A stretch of DNA of 64,000 nt. Source: Alphaproteobacteria bacterium. GTDB taxonomy: Bacteria; Pseudomonadota; Alphaproteobacteria; UBA828. How positions within the stretch are numbered: the first letter of the stretch is position 1; each line of letters starts with the position of its first letter. The translations under genes and the position numbers were made by a program. Positions 1,210-45,525 of this stretch are shown in pieces. The stretch covers positions 1 through 64,000 of the forward strand of contig CAXXVO010000014.1 in the NCBI GenBank assembly GCA_963422645.2, read 5' to 3'. The notes under the pieces are model-generated. The model did no database searches and was not told where the DNA came from. It saw nothing but the letters and a program-made list of their open reading frames with translations.

Positions 1210-1671
<462 letters not shown>

Positions 1672-1784
1672 TGAGGACGGTGATTATGGCGGCGGCCGCG
1701 GCCTGGTTCTGCCACCGCGATTGGTTCTTGACCTCATAGAGTTGCGGGACTATGGACTGCTCTCTCGCGTGACGGGAGCGGTCC

Positions 1785-2450
1785 ATGGGGTATTTCGGCT
1801 CGAAGGCGACAGCAGGTCTGTGCCAAGCGCTGATTGCGCTGATGCCGCCGCACTCCGTCTACATCGAAAGCCACCTTGGGGGCGGGGCGCTGATGAAGCG
1901 CAAGCCGCCGGCCGTGCGTTCGATCGGCATCGACCGCGATGCGCAGGCGCTCGAGGCCTTCGTCTGCGACTACCCGGTCGATCTGGTTCACGGCTGTGCC
2001 CATGACTTCCTGGCCTCGTTCCCGTTCCTGGGCCCGGAGCTGGTTTACAGCGATCCGCCCTATCTGCACGCGACCCGCCGCTCGGCGCAGCGCTACCGCT
2101 TCGAGTACGAGGAGGCCGGCCACGTCGCGCTTCTCGCGCTGCTCAAGGCTCTGCCCTGCCAGGTCATGATCTCGGGCCATCCGTCGGCGCTCTATGACGA
2201 GGTGCTGGCGGGATGGCGCCGGCTGGCGCTGCAGGTCACGACCCAGGGTCTGGTGCGAACCGAGGTCGTCTGGTTCAACTACGCCCCCGACCGGATGCAT
2301 TGGGCCAGCCACGCAGGCCGGAACTTCACCGACCGCCAGCGCATCAAGCGCAAGGCAGCCAACTGGGGCCGGCGCTACCAGGCCTTGCCGCCGGGCGAAC
2401 GCCTCGCCGTGCTCGCCGCCATGATGGCCGTCGAGGCCGAAGACACGTGA
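1785..2450 (+). CDS. Short D12-class (Dam-like) N6-adenine DNA methyltransferase
   Basis: YFGSK, ESHLGGGA (SAM-binding) and YSDPPY (catalytic) motifs. Confidence 0.85.
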   Translation: MGYFGSKATAGLCQALIALMPPHSVYIESHLGGGALMKRKPPAVRSIGIDRDAQALEAFVCDYPVDLVHGCAHDFLASFPFLGPELVYSDPPYLHATRRSAQRYRFEYEEAGHVALLALLKALPCQVMISGHPSALYDEVLAGWRRLALQVTTQGLVRTEVVWFNYAPDRMHWASHAGRNFTDRQRIKRKAANWGRRYQALPPGERLAVLAAMMAVEAEDT

Positions 2451-3985
2451 CGGTGTCGCACTGGCACGAAGACCTCGCCGCCCGTAACGAGGCCTTCTGC
2501 TGCCTGAAGGAGCTTCTCGAGCCATCATCCCTCGCAACCACTGTCGTCGTTGCCGTCCGGGAATGGGGGCAGGGGCTGCTGCGATCAGCCACCGCGCTCG
2601 CCCGGGAAAATGCCGCACTCGAGCAGGAGAACGCGGCCCTGCGCGAGCGCATCGCCGAACTCGAGCGCAGCGCGGCCCTCAACAGCACCACAAGCAGCAA
2701 GCCCCCCGCCAGCGACGGGCTCAAGAAGAAAAGCGGAGCCCAGAGGCGCACCCAAAGCCAGCGCGGAAAGTCCGGCGGGCCCAGTGGCGGCCAGCCCGGC
2801 CACAAGGGAACCACCCTCGCGCGGAGCGACAGCCCGGACCGTGTCGTCGATCACCACCCCTCCACCTGTTCCGGCTGTGGCGTCGAGCTCTCGGACGCCG
2901 ACCGGCAAGGCGCGCCCGCCTGTCGGCAGGTCTTCGACGTACCCGAGCCGCAGCCTCTCGAGGTCACCGAACACCGCGCCCATCGCTGCCTCTGCGGCGC
3001 ATGCGGCACGCTGACACGAGCCGCCTTCCCGCCGGGCGTCACCGCCCCGGTCCAGTACGGCCCTCGCATCACCGCTTGGGTGAGTTACCTGCTGTACGCC
3101 CAGTTCGTGCCCGAGAAGCGTCTGGCCGAACTCATGAGCGACATCTTCGCGGTGTCCATCTCCACTGCCACGATCGCCGCCATGGGCCGGCGCACAGCGC
3201 AGCGCTTCGAGGGCTTCCTCGACCATGTCGCCGATCTGATCCGCACGCAGGCGCCGGTCAAGCACCTCGACGAGACCGGCCTGCGTATCGCCGCCCGTAC
3301 CCGCTGGCTCCATGTGCTGTGCACCCCGTTGCTCACCGTCCTGCGCATCGGCGAGGGACGCGGCGATGTCGAAAAGAACCTGAAAGGCATCCTCGTCCAC
3401 GACGACTTCGCCCCCTACTTCACCATCAAGGGCGTCCGCCACGGCGCCTGCAACGCACATCACCTGCGCGAACTCCAGGCCCTGATCGACATCGAGAAGG
3501 AGGAATGGGCGGCGAGCATGCACCGCCTGCTTCAGCGCGCGCGCAGGGCCGCCCGCTTCGCCCGTGAGAAAGACCGTCAAGTCCCCGCCTCCCTGGTGGC
3601 CCGCATCTCAAGGGCATGGGACCGTATCCTCGAAGAAGCCATCGCCTTCCATGAGGCCCAACCGCCGCTCCAGATCGCAAAGCGAGGGCGAAAGAAACGC
3701 CGCATCGGCCACAACCTCGCGCGCCGCCTTCAAAAGCATAAGGAGGGCTGCCTGCGCTTCCTCACCGACCTGCGCACGCCGTTCACGAATAACGAGGCGG
3801 AGCGTGACATCCGTATGAACAAAGTGCATGAGAAGATCTCAGGCGGCTTCCGCTCCCTGCAAGGCGCCTGCAACTTCGCCGGAATGCGCAGCGTCATCGT
3901 CACCGCTCGAAAGCAAGGCTGGAACATCCTGCAAATCCTGGCGCACCCGGAACCGATGCAGCTGATCCCTATACTGCGCTCCTGA
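2447..3985 (+). CDS. tnpC: IS66 transposase TnpC
   Basis: GTG start overlaps the methyltransferase stop (GTGA); coiled coil, SSKPPASDG, GGQPGHKG, CxxC zinc finger and DDE core. Confidence 0.92.
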   Translation: MTVSHWHEDLAARNEAFCCLKELLEPSSLATTVVVAVREWGQGLLRSATALARENAALEQENAALRERIAELERSAALNSTTSSKPPASDGLKKKSGAQRRTQSQRGKSGGPSGGQPGHKGTTLARSDSPDRVVDHHPSTCSGCGVELSDADRQGAPACRQVFDVPEPQPLEVTEHRAHRCLCGACGTLTRAAFPPGVTAPVQYGPRITAWVSYLLYAQFVPEKRLAELMSDIFAVSISTATIAAMGRRTAQRFEGFLDHVADLIRTQAPVKHLDETGLRIAARTRWLHVLCTPLLTVLRIGEGRGDVEKNLKGILVHDDFAPYFTIKGVRHGACNAHHLRELQALIDIEKEEWAASMHRLLQRARRAARFAREKDRQVPASLVARISRAWDRILEEAIAFHEAQPPLQIAKRGRKKRRIGHNLARRLQKHKEGCLRFLTDLRTPFTNNEAERDIRMNKVHEKISGGFRSLQGACNFAGMRSVIVTARKQGWNILQILAHPEPMQLIPILRS

Positions 3986-22445: not shown

Positions 22446-22496
22446 TGTAGCCGGCCGAAAGTCTTTGCGAATCGCGGCCGGAAGTCTTTGCGAATG
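22446..22496 (+). repeat. Phage end with two tandem putative transposase-binding sites (23-bp period)
   Basis: GGCCGAAAGTCTTTGCGAAT and GGCCGGAAGTCTTTGCGAAT. Confidence 0.85.
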
Positions 22497-22550
22497 GCCT
22501 GGAAAATCGTCTGGTTTTCGGGGCTGAATCGGGCTGGAAAAACCGGCCTG

Positions 22551-22620
22551 TGCATGGGCCGTGAAGGAGCGCTGCGCGGGGGGTTCAGGGCCCGTGCACG
22601 GGCGGTGCGTGAGGGTTTCA
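22551..22620. repeat. 11-bp phased repeats
   Basis: TGCATGGGCCG/TGAAGGAGCGC/TGCGCGGGGGG/TTCAGGGCCCG/TGCACGGGCGG/TGCGTGAGGGT/TTCA. Confidence 0.65.
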
Positions 22621-23502
22621 GGCGCGGTCGGGACCGGGGCGGGCGCCGGGGCGGCACGGGCGTTCGAGTTCGGCCTTCCACCATTCGGGGTCTTCGACGG
22701 CGCGTTCTGCGGCGTCGTATCCGTCGTGACCGGTCCATCTTCCGGGGTCGGCGTCGGCGTACCATCGGCCTGCGCCGCGGTGTCGTTCGAGGGCGTCGTC
22801 GATGCGGGCGATCCCGTCCGCCGGGCGTCCCCGGCAGAAGCGCTCGAAGAAGGCGTTGAGGCGGCATCGGGGGCAGCGTCCGCAGGGCTCTGCCGCGACG
22901 GTGCATCGCCAGGTGAGCGCCTCCAGCCCGGGCGGGAGCAGGGCCTGGAGCATGAAGCGCCCGGCGACGGGTCCGAAGGGGTCGTCCCGCGACGGCGGCC
23001 ACTGCGCGCCGTCCTCCCAGCCGGGGAAGAAGGGGAGTTCCATGGGGACGGCGGTGCGCGCGCGGTAGGCCGGATGCCAGTACATGCGGTGCATGTCGTC
23101 GGCGGTGTCCCACGAGGTGATGCCGAGCATCACCCGGTCGGCGCGGTGGCGCTCGGCCTCGTCGGCGTGGGTTGCGTACCGGTCGAGGCCCCAGGGGCCG
23201 AATGTGGGGTCGCAGACGCCCTCCCACCCTCTCCCGTCCCTGATCGGGTATCCGGCGCCGGCATCGAGGTCGAGGCGCAGGGCGTCGCGCGACACGTGGC
23301 GCACGGGCCGGACGTTCCGGGAGAGCCAGTCTGCGACGGCCTCGCTTGCGGCCTGCTCGCGGGCGATGCGCGCGGGCAGTTCGCGGGCCGGCTCGCGGTA
23401 GTAGGAGAGGACGACCTCGTCTTCGGTCTCGCGCAGGACGAGGAGGGCGAGGGCGGTGCTGTCGATGCCGCCGCCTGCGGGGACGAGGGTGCGTCTTGGC
23501 AT
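22618..23502 (-). CDS. QueC-like PP-loop ATPase
   Basis: N-terminal GGGIDST PP-loop and C-terminal TWRC-x5-PCGRCPRC zinc motif. Confidence 0.72.
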   Translation of the reverse strand: MPRRTLVPAGGGIDSTALALLVLRETEDEVVLSYYREPARELPARIAREQAASEAVADWLSRNVRPVRHVSRDALRLDLDAGAGYPIRDGRGWEGVCDPTFGPWGLDRYATHADEAERHRADRVMLGITSWDTADDMHRMYWHPAYRARTAVPMELPFFPGWEDGAQWPPSRDDPFGPVAGRFMLQALLPPGLEALTWRCTVAAEPCGRCPRCRLNAFFERFCRGRPADGIARIDDALERHRGAGRWYADADPGRWTGHDGYDAAERAVEDPEWWKAELERPCRPGARPGPDRA

Positions 23503-23503
23503 C

Positions 23504-24316
23504 CTAGCCCCACTCGATGACGATATAGCCGGCGGAGACCGGGGAGGGCACGGTGAGCTGGGTGTGTCGGCTGACGCCGCTTGCGCCGGCGGGGGCGGAG
23601 GAGGTTCCGTCTGCGCCGTCTGCGCCGTTGCGTCCGTAGACCGCTCTCTTGCCGCCCTTGCCGCCGCGCGCCGTGCCGCCGAGGACGGCGGTGTTGCTGC
23701 CGTCGCCGCCGTCGGTGCCGGGGCGCGCCGTGCTGGTAAGGAGGGTGGGCGGTCCGTCCGTGCCGTCCACGCCGTTGCTTCCCACGGACCACCAGTAGGA
23801 GCTGCCCGGCGAGACCGCGATCTCGAAGTAGATGAAGCCGCCGCCGCCGCCGTCGCCGCCACGCCAGGTGGTGCGCCTGTCGGGGCCCCTGCCGCCGGAG
23901 GTGATGCGGGTATAGCTGCCGCCGTCGCCGGCGGCGCCGCCCCGCAACTGCACGCGCACGCGGGTCACGCCCGTGGGCGCGACCCAGTACCCGGAGTCGG
24001 GCGTGGTGAAGGTCTTGCGCCCGCGCGGCGTGGGCCGGGGCGCCGGCTCGGGCGCGGGACGCGGCGGCGCCGTGCGCTCGCTGAGGTTGGCCAGCCGCGT
24101 GCGCTCGGCCGCGCTGAACACCTCGCCCCGCATCTGGCGGAAGGGGTGCAGGCCGGAGCCGTCGAGGGTGGCGACGCCGCCCGGATCGCCGAAGGCGTCG
24201 ATCATGGCGTTGATTGTGTCGGCCATGGCCTTTATGGCGACGCGGGCGTGGGCGGGCGAATCGCTGCCCTGGTCGAGGTGGGTGGTGTCGATCTTCCGGG
24301 TGGGCCATGCGGTCAT
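23504..24316 (-). CDS. Gly-rich phage tail fibre-like protein
   Basis: Downstream of J; GGVATLDGSG, FTT..SGYWVAPTGVT.V.V.L.GG glycine-rich domain, and GxxGxxG runs. Confidence 0.75.
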   Translation of the reverse strand: MTAWPTRKIDTTHLDQGSDSPAHARVAIKAMADTINAMIDAFGDPGGVATLDGSGLHPFRQMRGEVFSAAERTRLANLSERTAPPRPAPEPAPRPTPRGRKTFTTPDSGYWVAPTGVTRVRVQLRGGAAGDGGSYTRITSGGRGPDRRTTWRGGDGGGGGFIYFEIAVSPGSSYWWSVGSNGVDGTDGPPTLLTSTARPGTDGGDGSNTAVLGGTARGGKGGKRAVYGRNGADGADGTSSAPAGASGVSRHTQLTVPSPVSAGYIVIEWG

Positions 24317-24337
24317 TGGGTTTCCTTTCGCGCCCAC

Positions 24338-27300
24338 TCAGCTCGCCGGCGCGGCGATATGGGCGCGGGCGAGGCCGAAGCAGAGGTACTTGACGGTGGG
24401 GAGTTGCCCGCGCTCCCAGGTCCAGGTCCACTCGACCTGGACGATGCGTCCTGCAATCCTGTCCCCGGCGGCGTAGCCGGTCCAGGCGGCGGAGGCGAGG
24501 TCGTCTCGGAAGTCGGCGGCGCGCACGCGCACCGTCGGCTGGACGGCGGCGTCGGAGTCCCAGGCGAGCACCGAGACGACGCCGTCCTGGCCGAGGTCTG
24601 CCGGCATGGAGGTGTAGACGGTGGGCTCGGCCGCCCAGGCCGCGCCGGGGAGCGCCCATCCGGTCCAGGCGTCCCAGGTGGTGAGGCCGCGCCAGGCGTA
24701 GTCGGCGGCGCCGGTGGCGGGATCGGCCCAGGAGAAGTCGAGGGCCGCGCCGGCGAGCGTGCCGCGGGTCCATCCCTCGGCGCTGGGGCAGGCCCAGAAC
24801 AGGCTCTCGCCCCGGCGCTGGGCGCCGAGGCGCGCGGTGACGCGGCTCTCGGGGCCGTAGCGCCCGCCGGTGTCGAGGGCGCGGAAGGAGAATACCCAGT
24901 CTCCGGGGGCGGGCTCGACGGCCTCCCACGGGCTGGCGGTGAGCCATCCGTGGTGGATCGCGCGCAGCTCTTCCCACGGCGTGCCCGGATCTGCGGGATA
25001 CGCCGGCGCGGGTCCGTATCTGATGCGGACGCCGAGCAGGTCGGGGTCGGGCGGCTCGGCCCAGCGGAAGCGCCGGGTTCCGTCGCCGAGGCGCTCGACG
25101 TGGGCCTCGCCGACGGCGCCGGGGGGCGTGCGCAGGCCGCGGATCGTATATGCGATGCGGTGCGGGGGTCCGCCGCCGCGGGGCAGGACGACGATCTCGA
25201 TCCAGCCCTCGGGCGGGCTGGTCCAGCGCGCCTCCGTGTCGCCGCCGTCGAGGCTGGCGACGGTGCGCATGGGCCGGCGCTCCCACGACGCGCGGACCTC
25301 GGCGCCGCGCCAGTCGCCGGCGACGGTGAGGGAGAGCGCGATCTCGACGAGGAAGGCGGCGCCGACGCGGATCAGGGTCTCGGTGACGGTGGCGTGCAGG
25401 ACCCGCGGCAGATTGCGCCGTATCTGCGGCAGATCGACCGAGAGGTCGGCGGTGGCGGCAGCGTAGTAGGCGCCGAGCTCGTCGACGGCCTCGAGGCGCA
25501 CCCGGTCCCCGGATCTGGGGCTGACGCCCACGACCTTCACCCTCGCCGGCCCGGCGCCTGCGGGATAGAGGCGCCAGAGCGTGTCGACGGGCTCGCCGAC
25601 GCCTCTCTCCGGCGCGGGCGCTGTCCACACGCGGGCGGTTTCGGCGCCGTCCGCACGCGCGTCGGAGCCGGGCGGGCCGGCATGGGCGCGCACGGTCTCG
25701 AGCGCCCCTTCGGGCCGGCGCAGCATCAGCCAGTCGGTCCCCGCCGCGCCGGCGATCCGCACGGCGCGGTCGAGGGTGCATCCGTCGTCGTGCAGGGCGA
25801 CGAGCCGGCCCGTGCGGCCCCCGTCGAGCAGGCCGTGGCTGAGGTGGACCACGTCGCCGCGCCTGATGGAGAGGCCTTCCGGCCCCGTCTCCCAGGCGAT
25901 CCGCCGCCGGTGGTAGCGCTGGCGCGCGGCCTGGAGGTTGCACTCCAGGGCGGCCTGTTCGCGCGTCGTGACCCCGGCGAGCGTGAGCGTGGCGGTGGAC
26001 GCGGGCGGGTATTCCGCGTCCGGCACGGTGCGGCGCACGGTGTTCCACTGCCAGTCGAGATCGGGGTCGATATAGCGACAGGCGATCTCGTCCGCGCCGC
26101 GGCCTGCGGCCCAGTCCACCTCGAGGGAGCCTGCGACGATGTTCCCGGGGGTTATCATCGCCGTCGCCGGCCTGTCGGCGGCGTCCCACACGACGCCGAG
26201 CCGGCCCGACTGCCAGGAGGGCGCGGCGCGGCCGCAGCGGGCGATCGTCTCGATCACGCGGGCGTGGCCGATTGCGCGGTCCAGCACCAGGTCGCAGCGC
26301 AGCGGCGGGTCGTGGGCCGCGATCCAGTCGTGCCAGGCGCCGAGGCCGGCGAGGTCGATGCGGGCGTCGGGCAGGCCGACCCCGGCCACGACGCGGCCGT
26401 GCACGCGGATGCCGCGCAGGTAGAGCAGCATGAGGGCGGCGGGGTTGGAGGAGTACGCCGCGGGCGCGGCGGACCAGGCGCGCCCGTTCCAGCGGGGCGC
26501 CTTCTGGCGCACCAGCGCGCTCAGCCGGTCGACGGGGCCGGAGAGCTGGCCGGAGGCGCGGATGCTCAGGCCCAGCCGCCGCTGGCCGGTGTAGTCGGTC
26601 GCGTCCCTCTGGTAGCTCCTGAGGGCCGCCCAGGTCAGATCGTCGCCCGAGCGGTCGTCGTCCGCCGGCGGGGAGGTGCGGCGCACGCGGACCTCCCAGC
26701 TGCCGTCGCCCGCGAGATCCCAGGCCGCGCCCCAGCGGAATGGCGCGGTCTCGTCGTGGCCCAGCGTCTCCGCGCCGAGCCGCGTCCAGGCGCCGCCGCC
26801 GGCGCGGCGGGCCTCGACGACGATATCGACCTCGCGCCGCTCGGGCCTGCCCTGCCCGTCGAAACCGTAGAGCGCGCCGGCGATGTCCACGCCGACCCGG
26901 TAGGTGTCGTCGGCGGTGGTGCGCGTCACCCACCCGTCGTCCGCCCCGAGGTCGTCGGCGGCCACCGGCGCGCCGCCGTCCTCGGGCCAGGCGAGCGCGC
27001 CGCCGGCCTCGGTGTCGACGTTGCCGGCGATGCCGTGGACCTCGCCGCCCGGGCGCCAGTCGATCAGGCCGCGGGCGTCGGCCGGCGGCGCGAGCGTCAG
27101 GTGCTCGTAGTCCGTGATCGGGGTGTCGCCGATGCGGAGATCGGCCTCGGCGACCTCGATCGCGCCGAGGCCGAAGTGGAAGATCTGGCGCAGGATGTGG
27201 TCCGGCAGGGCGTCGGCGCCGGAGACGTACTCGGTGTAGGGCCGGGAGCCGAGGTCGGGGAAGATGCGGTGCTCGCCGAGGACCAGCAGGAAGGGCTGGT

Positions 27301-27916
27301 AGGGGCGCTGCGGGTTCCGCCCGCCCGAGATCGAGTAGACCGGGTCGGGCCGGGCGAGGGAGGCCCGGGTGACCTCGGGGATCGCGGGCGGCACGAGCGC
27401 GTTCACCAGCAGGGTGCCGCCCACCATGATCAGGGAGCTTCCGAGCGCGGTGGACTGGGCCGCCGTCAGGCCGAGGCCGAGGGCGTCCGAGATGAAGCCG
27501 CCGACCGCTGGCCCGGCCCAGACCGCGGCGACGACGACGGCGAGGGTGAGGATCGCGCGCAGCGGGTCGCTGTCGTCGCCCGCCGGCACCAGGCGGAGCG
27601 TGACGATATCGCCGAGGCGGAGCGGGGTCGCGGGCCACGCCGCGCGCGGGACGGGGGTCCCGTTCAGCTCGACGGCGACCAGGGCGGGGTCGAGCCCGAG
27701 CCTCCGCGCCTCGTCGGCGGCGAGGCCGGCGATGGTCTCGCCGGGGAGGATCGAGACCCGCCGGGTCTCGCGCCCCTCCGAGGTCAGCGGGTGCGGCCAG
27801 GCGTCGAGGGTCACGCCCGCGTGCGCGCGGTCGCGCGATGCAGGGGCCGTGACCGGGCCGTTCACGGGCGGTGCAAGGGTCGTGCGCGGCCCCTGCACGG
27901 GCGGTGAATCGCTCAT
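24338..27916 (-). CDS. Phage tail tip / host-specificity protein J with an N-terminal lambda-I-like domain
   Basis: VELNG..VPRAAW, PVYSISGGRN, VLGEHRIFPD, SSNPA, YIDPDLDWQ and RRGDVV.LSH; real start at MSDSPP. Confidence 0.88.
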   Translation of the reverse strand: MSDSPPVQGPRTTLAPPVNGPVTAPASRDRAHAGVTLDAWPHPLTSEGRETRRVSILPGETIAGLAADEARRLGLDPALVAVELNGTPVPRAAWPATPLRLGDIVTLRLVPAGDDSDPLRAILTLAVVVAAVWAGPAVGGFISDALGLGLTAAQSTALGSSLIMVGGTLLVNALVPPAIPEVTRASLARPDPVYSISGGRNPQRPYQPFLLVLGEHRIFPDLGSRPYTEYVSGADALPDHILRQIFHFGLGAIEVAEADLRIGDTPITDYEHLTLAPPADARGLIDWRPGGEVHGIAGNVDTEAGGALAWPEDGGAPVAADDLGADDGWVTRTTADDTYRVGVDIAGALYGFDGQGRPERREVDIVVEARRAGGGAWTRLGAETLGHDETAPFRWGAAWDLAGDGSWEVRVRRTSPPADDDRSGDDLTWAALRSYQRDATDYTGQRRLGLSIRASGQLSGPVDRLSALVRQKAPRWNGRAWSAAPAAYSSNPAALMLLYLRGIRVHGRVVAGVGLPDARIDLAGLGAWHDWIAAHDPPLRCDLVLDRAIGHARVIETIARCGRAAPSWQSGRLGVVWDAADRPATAMITPGNIVAGSLEVDWAAGRGADEIACRYIDPDLDWQWNTVRRTVPDAEYPPASTATLTLAGVTTREQAALECNLQAARQRYHRRRIAWETGPEGLSIRRGDVVHLSHGLLDGGRTGRLVALHDDGCTLDRAVRIAGAAGTDWLMLRRPEGALETVRAHAGPPGSDARADGAETARVWTAPAPERGVGEPVDTLWRLYPAGAGPARVKVVGVSPRSGDRVRLEAVDELGAYYAAATADLSVDLPQIRRNLPRVLHATVTETLIRVGAAFLVEIALSLTVAGDWRGAEVRASWERRPMRTVASLDGGDTEARWTSPPEGWIEIVVLPRGGGPPHRIAYTIRGLRTPPGAVGEAHVERLGDGTRRFRWAEPPDPDLLGVRIRYGPAPAYPADPGTPWEELRAIHHGWLTASPWEAVEPAPGDWVFSFRALDTGGRYGPESRVTARLGAQRRGESLFWACPSAEGWTRGTLAGAALDFSWADPATGAADYAWRGLTTWDAWTGWALPGAAWAAEPTVYTSMPADLGQDGVVSVLAWDSDAAVQPTVRVRAADFRDDLASAAWTGYAAGDRIAGRIVQVEWTWTWERGQLPTVKYLCFGLARAHIAAPAS
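27839..27908. repeat. 11-bp phased repeats in the 5' end of J
   Basis: TGCAGGGGCCG/TGACCGGGCCG/TTCACGGGCGG/TGCAAGGGTCG/TGCGCGGCCCC/TGCACGGGCGG/TGAA. Confidence 0.7.
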
Positions 27917-27975
27917 ATCCAGATCGTCCACCGATAGATCCCCGTGGCTTCCAGGCCGCGCGCCTCGGCCCGGCG
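27913..27975 (-). pseudogene. C-terminal stub of an NlpC/P60-type tail assembly protein
   Basis: Reads AEARGLEATGIYRWTIWI*, and its stop overlaps the J start (ATGA). Confidence 0.5.
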
Positions 27976-28330
27976 TCGTCGACGCGCGCTCAGGGCTCGC
28001 CTGCCCCGAGCCTGGTTCTGGGACGGGGCCGGCCGCAACCCCTATCTCGGCATGTTGGCGTTGGCCCGCCATATCGTGGTCACGGAGGACTCGGTTTCCA
28101 TGATCAGCGAGGCCATCTCCACCGGAACGCCGGTCTACGTTGCCAAAATGGCGGGCGGCAGCCGCCGGCTCGCGCGCTTTCACACGTCTCTCGTGGAAGA
28201 CGGCATCGTCCGGCCCTTCGACGGCCGGCTCGCCGAGTGGCACTACGAGCCGATTAACGAGACGCCGCGCATCGCAGCCGAAGTGCGCCGGCGGATGGAG
28301 GCTGCACAGGCCGCCCCGCCGTTCCCCTAG
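27970..28330 (+). pseudogene. ELM1 (mitochondrial fission ELM1-like) family gene, C-terminal fragment
   Basis: WDGAGRNPYLGMLA, VVTEDSVSMISEA..TGTPVY and YEPINET. Confidence 0.8.
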
Positions 28331-28429
28331 ACCCATCGCCGGGCTATGCCTCTCTCGCAGGGTTTGGGAAGGTCTGCTAGGGTTTGACCTGAGTTCATGA
28401 ACTCCGTCAGCGGGAGAGGAGGCACGCCG

Positions 28430-29740
28430 ATGAAGCATGAGAGCCGCAGAGCCAAGGGTGCCGGGCGCACCCGTCGTGAAATCCTGAAAGCCAGTGCTGC
28501 CGGCGTCGCAGGGACGGCCGCGCTCAGCGCGGGCTTCCCCTCGATCGTCCGCGCTGCGGACACGGTGCGGATCGGCTACGTCAGCCCCAAGACGGGGCCG
28601 CTCGCGCCCTTCGCCGTTTCCGACGAGTTCAACGTCTCCACGGTGCTGGAGGCCGTCGGCGGCAAGGTTCAGTCCGGCGGCAAGAGCCTCAATGTCGAGA
28701 TCATCGTCAAGGACAGCCAGTCGAACCCGAACCGCGCGGCCGAGGTGGCGAGCGAGCTGATCCTCTCCGACGAGGTGCACCTTCTCTGCGCCGGCAACAC
28801 GCCGGAGACCACCAACCCGGTCTCCGACCAGGCCGAGATCAACGAGGTCCCCTGCGTTACCACGCTCTGCCCATGGCAGCCCTACTTCTTCGGCCGCGGC
28901 GGCGATCCGGCGACCGGCTTCCAGTGGACCTATCACTACTTCTGGGGGCTGGAGGACGTGATCGCGGTCTTCCTCAACCTCTGGGCCAAGATCGAGACCA
29001 ACAAGGTGGTGGGCGGGCTCTTCCCCAACGACGGCGACGGCAACGCCTGGGGCCATCCCGAGCTCGGGTTCCCGAAACCGCTCGCCGGCGCCGGCTATAC
29101 CCTGATCGATCCGGGCCGTTATCAGAACCTCTCCGACGATTTCTCGGCCCATATTTCCGAGTTCAAGGAAAATGGCGTCGAGATCGTCACCGGCGTCGTG
29201 CTGCCGCCGGACTTCACCACATTCTGGACCCAGTCCGCGCAGCAGGGCTTCAGGCCCAAGGCTGCGACCGTGGGCAAGGCGCTGCTCTTCCCAGAGGCGA
29301 TCGAGGCACTGGGCGATGCCGGGCACAACATGAGCTCCGAGATCTGGTGGAGCCCCTCGCACCCCTTCAAGTCGAGCATCACCGGCCAGACCTGCGGCGA
29401 GCTTGCCGCCGCCTTCACCGCCGCCACCGGCAAGCAGTGGAGCCAGCCCGTGGGCTACGGCCACTCGATCTTCGAGGTCGCCCTCGACGTCGTGAGCCGG
29501 GCCGAGGACGTCAACGATCCCGAGGCGATGCTGGCGTCTATCGTTTCCACCAACGTCTCGACGATTGCGGGGCCGGTCTCGTGGGGCTCGGGCCCGGTGA
29601 AGAACGTCGCCAAGATGCCGCTGGTCGGCGGCCAGTGGCGGCGCACGCCGGATGGCCCCTTCGCCTACGACCTCACCATCACGTCGAACGAGACGGCGCC
29701 CGACATTCCCACCAACGCCGAAATGGAGCTGATCGGCTAG
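28430..29740 (+). CDS. Branched-chain amino acid-type ABC solute-binding protein (Tat signal)
   Basis: TRREILK twin-arginine motif; IGYVSPKTGPLA and KDSQSNP. Confidence 0.9.
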   Translation: MKHESRRAKGAGRTRREILKASAAGVAGTAALSAGFPSIVRAADTVRIGYVSPKTGPLAPFAVSDEFNVSTVLEAVGGKVQSGGKSLNVEIIVKDSQSNPNRAAEVASELILSDEVHLLCAGNTPETTNPVSDQAEINEVPCVTTLCPWQPYFFGRGGDPATGFQWTYHYFWGLEDVIAVFLNLWAKIETNKVVGGLFPNDGDGNAWGHPELGFPKPLAGAGYTLIDPGRYQNLSDDFSAHISEFKENGVEIVTGVVLPPDFTTFWTQSAQQGFRPKAATVGKALLFPEAIEALGDAGHNMSSEIWWSPSHPFKSSITGQTCGELAAAFTAATGKQWSQPVGYGHSIFEVALDVVSRAEDVNDPEAMLASIVSTNVSTIAGPVSWGSGPVKNVAKMPLVGGQWRRTPDGPFAYDLTITSNETAPDIPTNAEMELIG

Positions 29741-29794
29741 GGAACAGGACCTGCGGACGGCGCCCCCGGCGCTGCTCCGCAGGCGCGTGCCGGC

Positions 29795-30520
29795 ATGGCG
29801 GCGCTGATCGCGCTGGAGGGCGTCTCCAAGAGCTTCGGCTCGGTCAGGGCGACCGACCAGTTCAGCATGGAGCTCGAAGAGGGCGAGGCGGTCGGCGTCA
29901 TCGGCCCCAACGGCGCCGGCAAGAGCACGATGTTCAACATCATCACCGGCGCCGTGCGGCCGAACGAGGGGCGTGTCCTCTACGGCGGCCGTGACATCAC
30001 GCGGGCGCCGGCGCACGAGCGCTGCCGCATGGGGATCGGGCGCTCCTACCAGATCCCCCATCCCTTCGCGAACATGTCCGTGTTCGAGAACCTGCTGGTC
30101 GGCGCGGCTTTCGGCGGTAGCCGCTCCGAGGCCGCGTGCTATGACGAGTGCCACGAGATCCTGGGGCGCACCGGCCTCCTGGAGAAGGCGAACGCGCTGG
30201 CCGGCGCGCTCACCCTGCTGGAGCGCAAGCGGCTGGAGATGGCGCGCGCGCTCGCCACCCGACCGCGGGTCCTGCTGCTGGACGAGATCGCGGGCGGGTT
30301 GACCGAGCACGAGTGCCTAGCGCTGATCGACACCATCAAGGCGATCCACCGCACCGGCGTTTCGATCGTCTGGATCGAGCACGTGGTCCACGCGCTGCTC
30401 TCGGTGGTGAGCCGCCTGATCGTCATCAACTTCGGCCAGAAGCTCGCCGAGGGCGACCCGCAACAGGTGATGGCGAGCACCGAGGTGCAGGAGGTCTACA
30501 TGGGGATCAGCGCCGAATGA
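29795..30520 (+). CDS. ABC ATP-binding protein (LivG type)
   Basis: GPNGAGKS and LLLDE. Confidence 0.93.
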   Translation: MAALIALEGVSKSFGSVRATDQFSMELEEGEAVGVIGPNGAGKSTMFNIITGAVRPNEGRVLYGGRDITRAPAHERCRMGIGRSYQIPHPFANMSVFENLLVGAAFGGSRSEAACYDECHEILGRTGLLEKANALAGALTLLERKRLEMARALATRPRVLLLDEIAGGLTEHECLALIDTIKAIHRTGVSIVWIEHVVHALLSVVSRLIVINFGQKLAEGDPQQVMASTEVQEVYMGISAE

Positions 30521-39122: not shown

Positions 39123-39365
39123 GGTTGTCTCTTCGTTTCATTGGGATGGGACGCAGATGCCTGACTCTGGAACCGTGTCGACTGCCGTGCCTCTTCGAGC
39201 CGGCGATGGCAGCGCATACGGTTGGCGAGACGGGACAGACCCTTCTTATCGCACACCGCGCCAACCGGCCAAGTCCGCTTGACGCACGGTGCGCGCGGCC
39301 GTTTGGCGCGGCATAGTGGCGAAGCGGCGCCTGCAGTCCGCGATGTGCAACAGGTGAGACGCATC

Positions 39366-40282
39366 ATGGGGACGATGATCGGACTTAAGGGCCTCACCTG
39401 GGACCACCGCCGGGCCATCGATCCGATGATCGCGGCGGCGAAGGCCTTCGCCGAGCAGCGACCTGACGTGGACATCGCCTGGGACGTGCAGCCGCTTTCG
39501 GGCTTCGAGTTCCGGCCGATCGATGACATCGTCCGGGACTACGACCTGCTCGTCTTCGATCATCCTCATGTCGGTCATGCCGCTGAGGCGGGCCTGTTGC
39601 GTCCTCTCGATCACCTGTTGCCGCGCGACACGTTCATCGGCCCGTCGCTTGCGACCTATCGCTGGCAGGAGGCGCTGTGGGCGGTGCCGATCGATGCCGC
39701 CTGCCAGACCGCGTGCTACCGGCCCGATCTGCTGCCCGAGGGACCGCCCGCAACCTGGTCGGAGATGATGGCGATGGCAGGCAGACGCCGGCTCGCCTGC
39801 GGCCTCAAGGGCGTTCACGCCTTCATGTGTTTTCTCACCCTGGCCGCCAATCTGGGCGATCCCTCCAAGCAGGAGAAGGCGGGACCGCTGGTCAGGTGCG
39901 AGACGGCAGCGACGGTGCTCGCCATGCTGCGAGAGCTCGCCGCCGCCTGCCCGCCGGAGGCGCTCGACTGGAACTCCATCGCGCTGCAGGATGCCATGCG
40001 CGCGCGCGACGACCTCGCCTATTGCCCCTTGGTTTATGGCTTCGCGACCTATGCCGAAGCCGACCGCGTGCCGCAGCTGGCCTATGCCGATATCCCGGAT
40101 GCAGGCGGCCTGGGTCCGGTCGGCTCGACCATTGGCGGCGCGGGCCTCGGCGTCTCAGCCGAGACGCGCGAGGCGGATGCCGCCGAAGCCTTTGCCGCCT
40201 TCATGGCCGAGGGTGCAATCCAATGCGGCATCGTCGCGCGCTGTCACGGACAGCCCGCCCACCGTGACGCCTGGGACGACCC
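39366..40282 (+). pseudogene. ABC solute-binding protein, 5' part (interrupted by the mini-Mu)
   Basis: LKGLTWDH, DHPHVG and GSTIGGAGLGVS; breaks at AWDD|P. Confidence 0.88.
40278..40282 (+). repeat. 5-bp target-site duplication GACCC (left copy)
   Basis: Repeated at 45329-45333. Confidence 0.9.
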
Positions 40283-40386
40283 TGTAGCCGGCCAGAAGTC
40301 TTTGCGAATCGCGGCCAGAAGTCTTTGCGAATGGCCTGGAAAACAGGCTGATTTTCGGGGCTGATTCGGGCTGGAAAAACGGCCTC

Positions 40387-40452
40387 TGCATCGGCCATGC
40401 ACGGGCCGTTCAGGGGCGCGGAATTCGGTGTGCACGGCCCCTGCAAGGGTTC
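40387..40452. repeat. 11-bp phased repeats
   Basis: TGCATCGGCCA/TGCACGGGCCG/TTCAGGGGCGC/GGAATTCGGTG/TGCACGGCCCC/TGCAAGGGTTC. Confidence 0.65.
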
Positions 40453-40972
40453 TATTCCGCCTTCTCCTCCGCCTCGGGCGCGGGGGGCTGGGCGGGCCCG
40501 GCTTCGGGCGGGCGCCAGTGTCTGTCGTCGGCTGCGTCGAAGCGCTCGAGCGCGCCCGCGTCCATGGTTTCGATGCGCTTGCGGAGCGCGCGGCAGAGCC
40601 GGCGCAGGCGGTCGCGTTCGGCGTCCTGCTCCTCGGTGGCGGCGCCGCGCAGCCGCCGTCTGGCCTCGTGCTCCCAGCTCCTCGCCCCGTAGGCCTTCCG
40701 GATGCGGCGGGTTGCCTCCCGGTCGACCCCTTGCGCCCTTTCTTGCCGGAGGTCTTCGGCGGCGGCGCGCTCGCCCGCTTCGGCGATCATGGCCCATGCC
40801 GGCTTGGGGCTGGCGTCCGGGTCGGGGCCGTAGTCCGGCAGGCCGGGGATCGGGTTCCAGCCGTAGGCCTTCCATGTCGCCTCGTCGAACATCGTGTCGA
40901 TGCCGCCGGGGAAGGAGCCCGGCAGGAAGCCGTGGGCATGAGCCGGCGGATCGCGTCCTGGATGTCGATCAC
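40452..40972 (-). pseudogene. Putative tail-fibre assembly protein, frameshifted near 40935
   Basis: MIDIQDAIRRLMP continues as HGFLPG...MFDEATW...PKPAW in another frame if one C is restored. Confidence 0.55.
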
Positions 40973-40976
40973 CGTG

Positions 40977-41600
40977 TCATCCTCCGTCGGGCCGGGCGAG
41001 GGACGAGAACCTCTCTCCGTTCGACTGCGCCCACCATCGCACGAGCGAGCGGCGGATGCCGGCGGTGGCGGGTGCGACCCTGTGCCACCAGTCTGCGGGG
41101 AAGAGGACGAGCGATCCCGGCGGCGGGTCGATCCGTACGGGGCGGCGTTTCCGGCCCGGGTCCTGGAAGACCATGTCGCCGCCGGCTGCGGCGCGTTCGA
41201 CGATGAGGCTTGCGGAGACGGTCCGGTCGAGGGTGTCGGGAACTCCCCGCCCTGCGTACTGGTCGACGTGCCAGAGGCAGGCCTGTCCTGCGAAGTAACA
41301 GTTGCAGACGGCGGGCGAGGGCGTGTCCGCGCATGCGTTCAGCACCTCGCGGGCGTAGTTGCGGGCGAGGGCGTCCAGGGCGTCGGTGCAGTCTGCCGGG
41401 AGCATCCCGTCGGGCAGCCATGCCTCGTAGCAGTCGTCCGCGCCGGGGCCCCGGCGCGCGAGCGCGAGCCCGTTGACGGCTCGCTCGACCTCGGCCATTG
41501 CTCGAGGGCCGATGGCTGCGCGGACGACGCGAATGGGGGGGGTGGAACCCTCTCCGGGCTCGACCGGGGTTGATTCGCGGGGGTCTCTCACGCCGGGCAC
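40977..41600 (-). CDS. 2OG-Fe(II) oxygenase (prolyl-4-hydroxylase/PKHD-like)
   Basis: WHVD (HxD), GGD, GSLVLFP, HRVAP and RRSLV.W; start uncertain. Confidence 0.8.
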   Translation of the reverse strand: MPGVRDPRESTPVEPGEGSTPPIRVVRAAIGPRAMAEVERAVNGLALARRGPGADDCYEAWLPDGMLPADCTDALDALARNYAREVLNACADTPSPAVCNCYFAGQACLWHVDQYAGRGVPDTLDRTVSASLIVERAAAGGDMVFQDPGRKRRPVRIDPPPGSLVLFPADWWHRVAPATAGIRRSLVRWWAQSNGERFSSLARPDGG

Positions 41601-41614
41601 CGCCGTCGAATCTC

Positions 41615-43885
<2,271 letters not shown>

Positions 43886-44116
43886 GCCGCCGCGCTCGCC
43901 CAGACCGCAGGCGCCGCGGCGCTGGCCATCGAGCGCGGCCTGCTCTCGGACGCCACCGCGCTCCGCGTCATCGCCGCCGTCGCCGGGCGCCTCGGCGTCG
44001 AGATCGACGCCGACGCCGAACTCGAGGCGGCGCGCGAAGACGCCGCCGGACGGGCCGAAGAAGACGCCTTCCGCGAGCCCCCGCAGGACGAGGACGCCGA
44101 CGACGGCGAGGCGTAG
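43886..44116 (+). pseudogene. Probable portal protein C-terminal fragment
   Basis: AAALAQ..AIERGLLSDATALRVIAAVAGRLGVEID plus an acidic tail, directly upstream of the minor head gene. Confidence 0.55.
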
Positions 44117-44119
44117 CAC

Positions 44120-45058
44120 GTGGCTACCGACCGTCAGCGCGAGCGCAGGCTCAAGGGCGAGCGATCCCGCCGCGCCCGCGCCCTGCCCCGCATCCAGAAG
44201 GACACCGCCGCCGAGGTCGGCCGCATCCTCGGGCGCGCCGAGCGCGACATCCGGGCCACCCTCGCCGGCGCGCCCTCCGATTACCAGGCATGGGCGCTGC
44301 CATCCCTCCAGGCCTCCGTCCGGGACGCCCTCGACAGCCTCGGCGCAGACGCCGGGCAGGCCATGGCCGAGGGCGCAACCCGCGCCTGGGACGCCGGCAT
44401 CGATACCATGGACGCCCCCGTCGACGCCGCCATGCGCCTCGATGCCCCCGACTTCCGCATCGCCGCCGTCCTGCCCGAGGTCGACACCCGCCAGCTCCTC
44501 GCCATGCGATCCTTCCTCACCGACAGGATGAAGGACGTCTCCACGACGCTTGCCGAGCGCGTCAATACCGAACTCGGCCTCGCCATGACCGGCTCGGTCC
44601 CCGTCGGCGAGACCACCGGCCGCGTCGCCGCCATCCTCAAGAGCGGCGGCAGGTCCCGCGCCCTGACAATCGTGCGGACCGAGCTCGGCCGCGCATACTC
44701 CATGGCCGGACAGCAGCGCATGGAGCAGGCCGCCGGGATCCTGCCGGGGCTGAGGAAGCAGTGGCGACGCTCCGGAAAGCTCAGAAGCCGCATCGCCCAC
44801 GACGCCGTCGACGGACAGACCAGGGAAGCCGCCAGGCCCTTCGACGTCGGCGGCGCTTCGCTCATGTACCCCCGCGATCCCGCCGGACCCGCCGCCGAGA
44901 CGATCAACTGCGGATGCCAGTCGCTGCCATGGATGGAAAGCTGGGAGGTCGAGAACCCCGGGCGAAAGCCGTTCTCCGACGAGGAGATCGCACGCGACCC
45001 GCGGCGCGCCGATCTCGAAGGGAAGGAGGCCGGCGCGGGGACAACGCCGGCATCGTAG
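44120..45058 (+). CDS. Phage minor head / head morphogenesis protein (Mu gpF / SPP1 gp7 family)
   Basis: RALTIVRTELGRA, KQW, R..HDAVDGQ, LMYPRDP and ETINCGC. Confidence 0.88.
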   Translation: MATDRQRERRLKGERSRRARALPRIQKDTAAEVGRILGRAERDIRATLAGAPSDYQAWALPSLQASVRDALDSLGADAGQAMAEGATRAWDAGIDTMDAPVDAAMRLDAPDFRIAAVLPEVDTRQLLAMRSFLTDRMKDVSTTLAERVNTELGLAMTGSVPVGETTGRVAAILKSGGRSRALTIVRTELGRAYSMAGQQRMEQAAGILPGLRKQWRRSGKLRSRIAHDAVDGQTREAARPFDVGGASLMYPRDPAGPAAETINCGCQSLPWMESWEVENPGRKPFSDEEIARDPRRADLEGKEAGAGTTPAS

Positions 45059-45203
45059 ACCGGGCGAGGCGAAGCCCCGCGCCGCACCCCGATTTACCGG
45101 CGAATCCGCACCCCCGGAACCGCCCCGATTTACAGGCCTTTCAGCACCCCTGAAACGCCCCGAAAATCACCGTTTCCAGCCAATTCACGGCCCTTTCCGG
45201 GCC

Positions 45204-45328
45204 GGATTCGCAAAGACTTTCGTCCGGCCCGCCAGACCCCGGAAACGCCGCCAACCCCTTGACCGTCCGCCCTCTTCCGCCTTCTTCCCGGCATCTTCCG
45301 GATTCGCAATGACTTTCGTCCCCCTACA
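45204..45328 (-). repeat. Second phage end with two putative transposase-binding sites 96 bp apart
   Basis: GGATTCGCAAAGACTTTCGTCC (45204) and GGATTCGCAATGACTTTCGTCC (45300), ending in CTACA. Confidence 0.88.
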
Positions 45329-45517
45329 GACCCTGAGATCGATGCCCGGTTCGGCGGTTTCTTTACGGCGACGCGGCGCACCATCGAGGCAAGCGCGATC
45401 CGGCCGCGCCATGCCGGCTACATGACGCTCCAGGCTGCGGCCGGACCGCTGATCGAAGGCCACCTGCGCGGCGAAATCCCCGAGGCCACGGTGCTCGCCG
45501 GCCTCGGCATCGCGTGA
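45329..45517 (+). pseudogene. ABC solute-binding protein, 3' part (begins with the right GACCC copy)
   Basis: DPEIDARFGGFFTATRRTIEASAIRPRHAGY...*; continues the 39366 frame. Confidence 0.88.
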
Positions 45518-45525
45518 GAGTGAGT

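Follow-up and report, generated by a model that had tools for sequence, protein, structure and literature searches.

A 5-kb transposase-less remnant of a Mu-type prophage and its genome-wide family of end-bounded relatives in an alphaproteobacterium

The stretch of DNA analysed here (the window) comprises positions 1 to 64,000 of contig CAXXVO010000014.1 of an Alphaproteobacteria bacterium (assembly GCA_963422645.2), which is contig C15 of the genome in the numbering used below. It contains, at 40283-45328, an insert of 5,046 bp that has both ends of a Mu-type transposable phage and no transposase, a description on which anatomy and gene content agree and which had already been given in a first, sequence-only reading of the window. 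We consider that this copy is an internally deleted, transposase-less Mu-type prophage which, on balance, probably arrived larger and lost its interior in place. Two things escaped the sequence-only reading: about 43 copies exist in all, of which the window contains one, and in the parent phage the late genes read outward at both ends. Taken alone, the 5-kb element is a case of ordinary decay; the swarm formed by its family is the notable part.

The insert begins with TGTAG (40283-40287) and finishes with CTACA (45324-45328), that is with inverted TG...CA ends, and its terminal inverted repeat extends over 29 nucleotides with 79% complementarity. In the L end (40283-40451, plus strand, type La in the typology given below), two copies of the 14-mer AAGTCTTTGCGAAT, located at 40296-40309 and 40319-40332, are embedded in 23-bp direct repeats; these two adjacent putative transposase sites give it a layout like that of the Mu right end. 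At the R end (45059-45328, plus strand, type R1), the complement of AAGTCTTTGCGAAT is found exactly at 45206-45219 and with one change at 45302-45315, a spacing of 96 bp and a layout like that of the Mu left end. The insert is bracketed by a GACCC duplication (40278-40282 on the left, 45329-45333 on the right). All these features had been announced by the sequence-only reading and are present by direct reading. The interrupted host gene, whose 5' part lies at 39222-40282 and whose 3' part, right GACCC included, lies at 45329-45518 (both on the plus strand), matches the Pfam families SBP_bac_8 (1.2e-13) and SBP_bac_1 (5.6e-10) and encodes a solute-binding protein of the ABC (ATP-binding cassette) type. 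It rejoins in frame, as expected: in-silico removal of the element and of one GACCC restores an open frame of 414 amino acids, which aligns without gaps with its orthologue in a genome of the same genus, G005 (383/414 residues identical, 92%), and the DNA over the empty site is 93.5% identical to G005 across 200 bp. This anatomy demonstrates insertion by transposase-type joining, for which the enzyme would have been of the DDE (MuA) type.

Termini were searched in the whole genome (5.9 Mb in 23 contigs, 99.58% completeness and 8.48% contamination) by BLAST and by pattern searches. We found 86 of them, corresponding to about 43 copies and belonging to four types (La, 12; Lb, 29; R1, 24; R2, 21), with L sites 23 bp apart and R sites separated by 96 bp in R1 and 116 bp in R2. 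This subterminal arrangement, considered as sequence only, is conserved in the 86 ends and in two other genomes. The TGTAG and 14-bp features of the element are not chance, because a 27-nucleotide terminus pattern occurs 84 times in the genome and 0 times as its reversed control, and because identical 5-bp flanks are shared in 20 of the 26 adjacent convergent end pairs. All 20 flank-matched pairs associate one L with one R end; their sizes range from 893 to 22,672 bp, they show 19 different duplications, and they are inserted at scattered positions rather than at a fixed attachment site. The flanks fit N-Y-S-R-N, which is the Mu target consensus, in 11 of these 20 pairs (P = 4.6e-4) and at 37 of the 86 ends (P = 5.8e-7), for a background of 19.5%. 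Ends without a partner number 46, and the region between La and R2 ends on contig C12 (45.8-72.7 kb) was discarded as host DNA.

Outside this genome, the terminus pattern gave 0 matches in 40 related genomes (G001-G040, 20 of them of the same genus) and 0 in IMG/VR, where the relatives of MuF are only 33% identical. It is present in the chromosomes of two other alphaproteobacterial metagenome-assembled genomes (MAGs), G429 and G430. The first shows about 20 diverged termini and gives no match to phrog_310; its two mini-elements of 918 and 993 bp have both arm breakpoints in common at two loci and differ in their middle segments, and its long end "pairs" (13.9, 25.5 and 29.5 kb) were rejected as separate solo ends with host genes enclosed. 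The second has five termini, including those of a 3,999-bp element (G430:C1:107775-111773, duplication AAGAG) in which an 891-amino-acid fusion of MuF with an NAD:arginine ADP-ribosyltransferase and a Mu G-like protein stand beside the R-type end.

The 5-kb copy itself contains only five genes or gene fragments, and the claim that only tail-end and head-end genes remain is borne out: the left-hand genes are on the minus strand toward the L end and the right-hand genes on the plus strand toward the R end. The last gene before the L end, p146 (40452-40892, minus strand), encodes 146 amino acids and matches 0 families; a 22-bp indel distinguishes copies close to it, at 40936. It is followed by a 2-oxoglutarate (2OG)-Fe(II) oxygenase-like open reading frame (ORF) of 207 amino acids (40977-41600, minus strand; PF13640, 3.7e-10; phrog_61, 1.4e-13) and by the C-terminal ~736 amino acids of a J-like central tail fibre whose N-terminus is deleted (41615-43824, minus strand). 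This fragment, recognised by similarity to the copy on contig C8, is 98.5% identical over 595 amino acids to residues 806-1400 of a 1412-amino-acid open frame, which matches phrog_31 "central tail fiber J" at 1.9e-87 and whose first ~58 residues match IS21 flanks. Beyond the deletion scars (43825-43891) come a C-terminal remnant of about 75 codons of a Mu-type portal gene (43892-44116, plus strand), which aligns collinearly with the complete portal genes found in other copies (476 amino acids in C6; 495 in C8, matching Portal_Mu PF06074 at 3.5e-78), and an intact MuF-like head morphogenesis gene of 312 amino acids (44120-45058, plus strand; phrog_2468, 3.9e-31; also PF04233 at 1.1e-5, under the cut-off), for which five open copies with 96-100% identity are listed. 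The tail-fibre gene also contains a hexanucleotide array, (GGTGTC)n, at 41904-41981, which encodes (Thr-Pro)13; five genome copies have 12, 13, 17, 17 and 27 units, so that the length of this linker is variable. Neither a MuA-type transposase nor a MuB-type ATPase is encoded in this copy or in any copy of the family, and we therefore describe the element as derived from a Mu-type phage rather than as an autonomous one. Its gene list also lacks what would characterise a satellite resembling phage-inducible chromosomal islands (PICI), namely an integrase or regulator of its own together with packaging hijack.

Where a single join near 43885 had been proposed, comparison with the parental copies in C8 and C6 reveals two scars. 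In the first, the J-like fragment stops at 43824 and is followed by a 2-bp filler, GT (43825-43826), and by a displaced 65-bp portal piece (43827-43891). The second is a 603-bp deletion of the portal gene at a 7-bp microhomology, CGCCGCC (43885-43891). Loose ends of contigs from a public sequencing run, X3, fall at 43824, 43827, 43885 and 43891, which are exactly the scar positions.

Pooling the copies gives the gene set of a Mu-type phage, with GemA, Mor, gp27, TerL, Mu portal, MuF, protease, capsid and J-like fibre. Briefly, the R arm comprises GemA (PF06252, 9e-25), HNH, a Mor-like activator (phrog_836), an endolysin, the gp27 small terminase (PF11985, 4.5e-32), TerL, the Mu portal (3.5e-78) and MuF, and every one of these genes is oriented outward, toward the R end. 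The L arm, read outward to the L end, comprises protease, scaffold, major capsid, connectors, tail genes, J, oxygenase and p146. A central piece, found on C8 and C16, carries an S24-type repressor and a D12 methylase; in both modules, which are 94.7% identical, the repressor is directly beside HNH with no transposition genes between them, and the C16 copy has no termini. By analogy of layout, the close-spaced-site end next to the tail genes appears to match the Mu right end, and the spaced-site end would correspond to the Mu left end but abuts MuF; the block from repressor to MuF would then be inverted relative to Mu. We argue that this layout is native because MuF and G also stand next to the R end in G430.

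The existence of a full helper prophage, with MuA/MuB-like genes and the same end motif, had also been envisaged; none is present in the assembly. Whole-assembly scans with PF09299, PF02316 and PF02914 gave 0 matches and carry little weight because their controls were silent too. The scans with phrog_310 and PF00665, which did work, returned only transposases of the IS3/IS481 type, about 69 IS21 and a Mu-related transposase of 524 amino acids (TnpA524). The sole MuA-type trace, detected with the MuA proteins of relatives, is a frameshifted N-terminal fragment (C10:193957-194581) situated between IS21 and another insertion sequence (IS) and cut by IS21; it is 44% identical over 86 amino acids to the MuA of a Mu-like prophage in a relative, G089. 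With what this assembly encodes, the element has no means of moving on its own and would depend on a transposase from a helper.

Other candidates were set aside. Contig C1 has MuF-like scraps at both ends and is rich in toxin-antitoxin genes and IS, with no phage or transposition genes. A 760-amino-acid Transposase_29 protein near R2 ends of C12 belongs to a 2.57-kb IS, present in six copies of ~100% identity with some 200 weaker tblastn matches at 32-36%. The MuB_C match of a 105-amino-acid ORF upstream of TerL was disregarded (20.6 bits for a cut-off of 25). TnpA524 was not retained as the cognate enzyme, being part of a separate 5,192-bp transposon with unrelated ends.

The question of whether the element moved as a 5-kb unit or decayed in place was addressed first through its junction. 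The interior deletion junction was checked across the 5.9-Mb genome and is unique: the recurrence at other loci with other duplications, which had been named as the sign that the deleted form transposes, is not observed there. No non-IS junction is common to any two of the 20 pairs: all are private and many lie at IS21 or other IS, an automated junction-sharing scan being noisy owing to the IS copies. The sole common junction joins IS21 to R1 at 198 bp from the R1 terminus (C9:570968 and C19:136807). IS21 also occupies the 198-bp position, but reversed, at C10:37026, and lies 187 bp from the terminus at C22:23276, which makes four different elements with both orientations represented. This recurrent position would reflect a preferred target of IS21 immediately internal to the end sites, or a recombination product, and is no proof of movement. 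Had the 5-kb form transposed replicatively, a donor with the same junction should remain; none exists, and deletion after insertion is favoured. The unique junction together with the lack of a helper likewise favours decay after insertion for the 5-kb copy, as does the proportion of partnerless ends in the family (46/86), which is what random decay predicts; the two separate scars suggest a stepwise loss.

We propose that a DDE (MuA-type) transposase would have acted on the two ends, each with its two 14-bp sites, and joined the element into the solute-binding-protein gene with a 5-bp duplication. The copy would have arrived as a much larger element, of which some 25-30 kb would have been lost in place via at least two illegitimate-recombination deletions, and the lost region would have held tail, head, repressor, early/transposition and packaging genes. 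The killing functions of a Mu-like prophage are probably what selection acted against in this loss; a newly inserted prophage can rapidly be stripped of its interior under such selection, and the genes concerned are missing from all the copies here.

The age of the insertion was approached by comparing contigs (not reads) of four public runs with the window, only the parts with contig cover in a given run being taken as evidence. In X3, contigs bridge both host-element junctions. In X1, which has the same organism label and comes from another study and year, a contig joins 40277 to 45329 and represents the empty site, with 0 differences in 396 + 512 letters of flanks; X1 has, in turn, an L end on a flank that is uninterrupted here at C16:147297-147326. 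The empty site and the private insertion of X1 indicate that the family moved recently. Near-identical strains thus carry reciprocal private insertions, to which allele exchange by recombination may have contributed. It had been stated beforehand that a junction unique to this locus, with a full prophage at the same site in relatives, would mean decay only: the junction is indeed unique, but the site is empty in G005 and in X1.

Several observations weigh against arrival as a large element followed by loss in place. The assembly contains no full-length or autonomous copy from which a recent full-length insertion could visibly have come. The empty site and identical flanks of X1 show that the insertion is young, and deletions of 30 kb and 603 bp must fit into that short time. 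The two G429 mini-elements with common arm breakpoints at two loci hint that mini forms of the family can be copied. Finally, the copy retains all the cis needs of a mobilisable mini-Mu, the enhancer aside.

These same observations are the strength of the alternative that we regard as possible though doubtful, a natural mini-Mu: the 5-kb form would have pre-existed and been moved in trans by a helper Mu-like phage, either an ancestral resident or an infecting one. Mini-Mu units are described as requiring nothing in cis beyond the L and R ends, MuA and MuB being supplied in trans (PMC3145075), and the element has both ends, four 14-bp sites and a perfect duplication intact. No copy is autonomous, yet there are 20 intact transposase-less pairs, the smallest of 893 bp, and the family moved very recently. 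The central modules of C8 and C16, arranged alike without transposition genes, also fit this alternative, but the C16 copy, devoid of termini, could be a segmental duplication, and the middle segments of the G429 minis differ. Moreover, no sibling or donor copy with the junction exists in 5.9 Mb, none of the 20 pairs (0/20) shares a non-IS junction with another, and no helper gene was found in the assembly. We therefore keep alive a mini-Mu mobilised in trans because of the recent movement without a resident transposase, the intact cis sites and the G429 minis. Of the two outcomes offered by the sequence-only reading, a non-autonomous element or a deletion in situ, the unique junction favours the second, and the recent mobility of the family leaves the first some likelihood.

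At the level of the whole family, a possible though doubtful reading is a living swarm of transposase-less mini-Mu units, arbitrary phage remnants (0.9-23 kb) between Mu-type ends, mobilised in trans by a helper MuA/MuB that need not stay. If so, sister strains would continue to acquire new insertions although no copy encodes the enzyme. The 5-kb element would then be a unit of this swarm that had moved recently, and bacteria would possess, in this family, a virus-built counterpart of Ac/Ds-type systems.

It is improbable, in our opinion, that the deletion was born during transposition itself, the replication of a larger donor being aborted with a template switch, so that the new copy was short and the donor stayed long, much as Ds-type derivatives are formed. 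This would account for private junctions combined with perfect duplications in 20/20 pairs, for the short filler and displaced 65-bp portal piece at the junction, and for a 204-bp inverted filler in a 1,567-bp element (C6:102622-104188). However, many junctions are plain IS boundaries, no precedent was found in the literature searched, and a resident transposase, of which none was found, would still be needed.

The use of the ends by an unrelated resident transposase, either TnpA524 or the IstA of IS21, is very unlikely. TnpA524 matches phrog_310 at 1e-33 and has at least 14 open copies, and both the 5,192-bp transposon and IS21 are enriched within 10 kb of Mu-type ends (13/22 and 26/69, respectively, against 22% for random positions), while two other IS families are at the random level (8/48 and 15/87). 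But blastp detects no similarity between TnpA524 and the MuA proteins of relatives, and the transposon that encodes TnpA524, whose ends are TGAGCG...GCTCA with subterminal ATTTGWTG-like repeats and 4-5-bp duplications, has no motif in common with the Mu-type ends and nothing that resembles the 14-bp site. That site has 183 matches in the genome with at most 2 changes, about two per terminus as an overall ratio to the 86 termini. Least likely of all is a Tn7-like or other transposon that captured phage genes: Tn7-like elements also have TGT termini, a 5-bp duplication and asymmetric multiple end sites, but the annotated copies contain no tnsA/B/C-like genes, insertion took place at scattered positions and not at one fixed attachment site, and the cargo is a coherent Mu-type phage gene set.

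Some observations concern the surroundings of the family. The genome is saturated with IS (about 69 IS21, about 48 copies of a 2.1-kb IS and about 87 of the Transposase_29 type), most copies being 99.8-100% identical, with further IS66, IS1595, IS3/IS481 and a 645-bp element; two 2.1-kb IS copies lie in the window, at 1-649 and 1641-3744. Many Mu-type copies are broken by IS elements. The 5,192-bp transposon (C8:788924-794115, with about 15 further full-length copies, all outside the window and 99.8-100% identical) has an unusual gene set composed of p205, the DDE transposase TnpA524, a 702-amino-acid AAA_25 helicase/primase-like protein and a 289-amino-acid DUF3991-Toprim protein. A second Mu-type end in the window, at 22446 (type Lb, flank CCGTG), opens an unpaired element (22446-30310, up to about 31000) whose R partner was not found; the J-like ORF that it contains (1990 amino acids, minus strand, 24338-30310) shows about 44% identity with its La-type counterpart, and its homology to other Lb copies stops near 27967 while the ORF continues to 30310. 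On C12, two facing R2-type ends form a 450-bp palindrome (72306-72755) with no matching duplication. Solo L and R ends on separate contigs have a common 5-bp flank in two cases (C5:244783 and C6:164266, CACAT; C14:63015 and C19:154904, ATGGT), for which recombination of the chromosome between copies, contig mis-joins or chance are possible causes. Lastly, outside the window, C15:208972-215661 contains a distant phage head and tail cluster whose protease, capsid and J are 55%, 35% and 52% identical to those of the Mu-type family.

Mu-like prophages are usually present as one to a few complete copies per genome, and mini-Mu is known as a laboratory construct. Here, about 43 end-bounded remnants exist with no transposase and with insertion differences between near-identical strains, and we found no report of a natural swarm of this kind in the literature searched (supplements aside). 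If the remnants move in trans, they would constitute a natural phage-derived family of non-autonomous transposons and illustrate how a virus may become a genome-wide repeat. If decay alone is at work, 20 copies of one transposable phage, each eroded independently, form a rare series in which to study how IS insertions and microhomology deletions rid a prophage of its lethal functions. The locus also documents a Mu-type layout with late genes outward at both ends, and the 14-bp site and TGTAG terminus allow all the copies to be masked or mapped during annotation.

Among known systems, three Mu-like prophages of other Alphaproteobacteria (G089, G256 and G137) resemble the parent by their MuF (41-53% identical), associated with TerL, a D12 methylase and a Mor-like gene. 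They differ in having kept a true MuA (phrog_310, 5e-95 to 2e-153) and, in G089 and G137, by a conventional one-direction gene order; inverted end repeats were sought in the prophages of G089 and G256 with no usable result. By MuF (42.5% identity over 88% of the query), the closest cultured phage is the Microcystis phage Mae-JY22 (PP438414.1), which also has DUF3486 (gp27-like), Gam and an adenine methylase, with early and late blocks on opposite strands, but is a free cyanobacterial phage; its guessed early proteins gave no tblastn match in this genome or in the loci of relatives. The multi-copy Mu-like prophages of Escherichia coli CC119 are comparable in that their chromosomal positions vary among strains, a variation attributed to transposition in the account given in PMC10132054. 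That account describes one to three well-conserved full phages per genome, whereas here the ~43 copies are decayed and none is complete.

The resemblance to Mu and mini-Mu, as a comparison of layouts only, lies in the TG...CA termini, the 5-bp duplication, the several sites per end with different spacing, the tail genes read toward the close-spaced end and the flanks enriched for N-Y-S-R-N. The packaging genes of the parent (TerS to MuF) are nevertheless outward at the spaced-site end, where Mu has its repressor with A and B. Furthermore, the ends-only mini-Mu unit that depends on MuA/MuB in trans (PMC3145075) is presented as an engineered tool (PMC3145075, PMC8705779), whereas the deletion observed here is natural. 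Ds-type elements and miniature inverted-repeat transposable elements (MITEs) have likewise kept both ends and the target duplication, lost the transposase and spread as many copies of varied internal length. MITEs, however, are near-identical short copies, and the family contains no such series, its 5-kb member having a unique junction and 0 of the 20 pairs sharing a non-IS one; in addition, the parent of this family is a phage and not a simple transposon.

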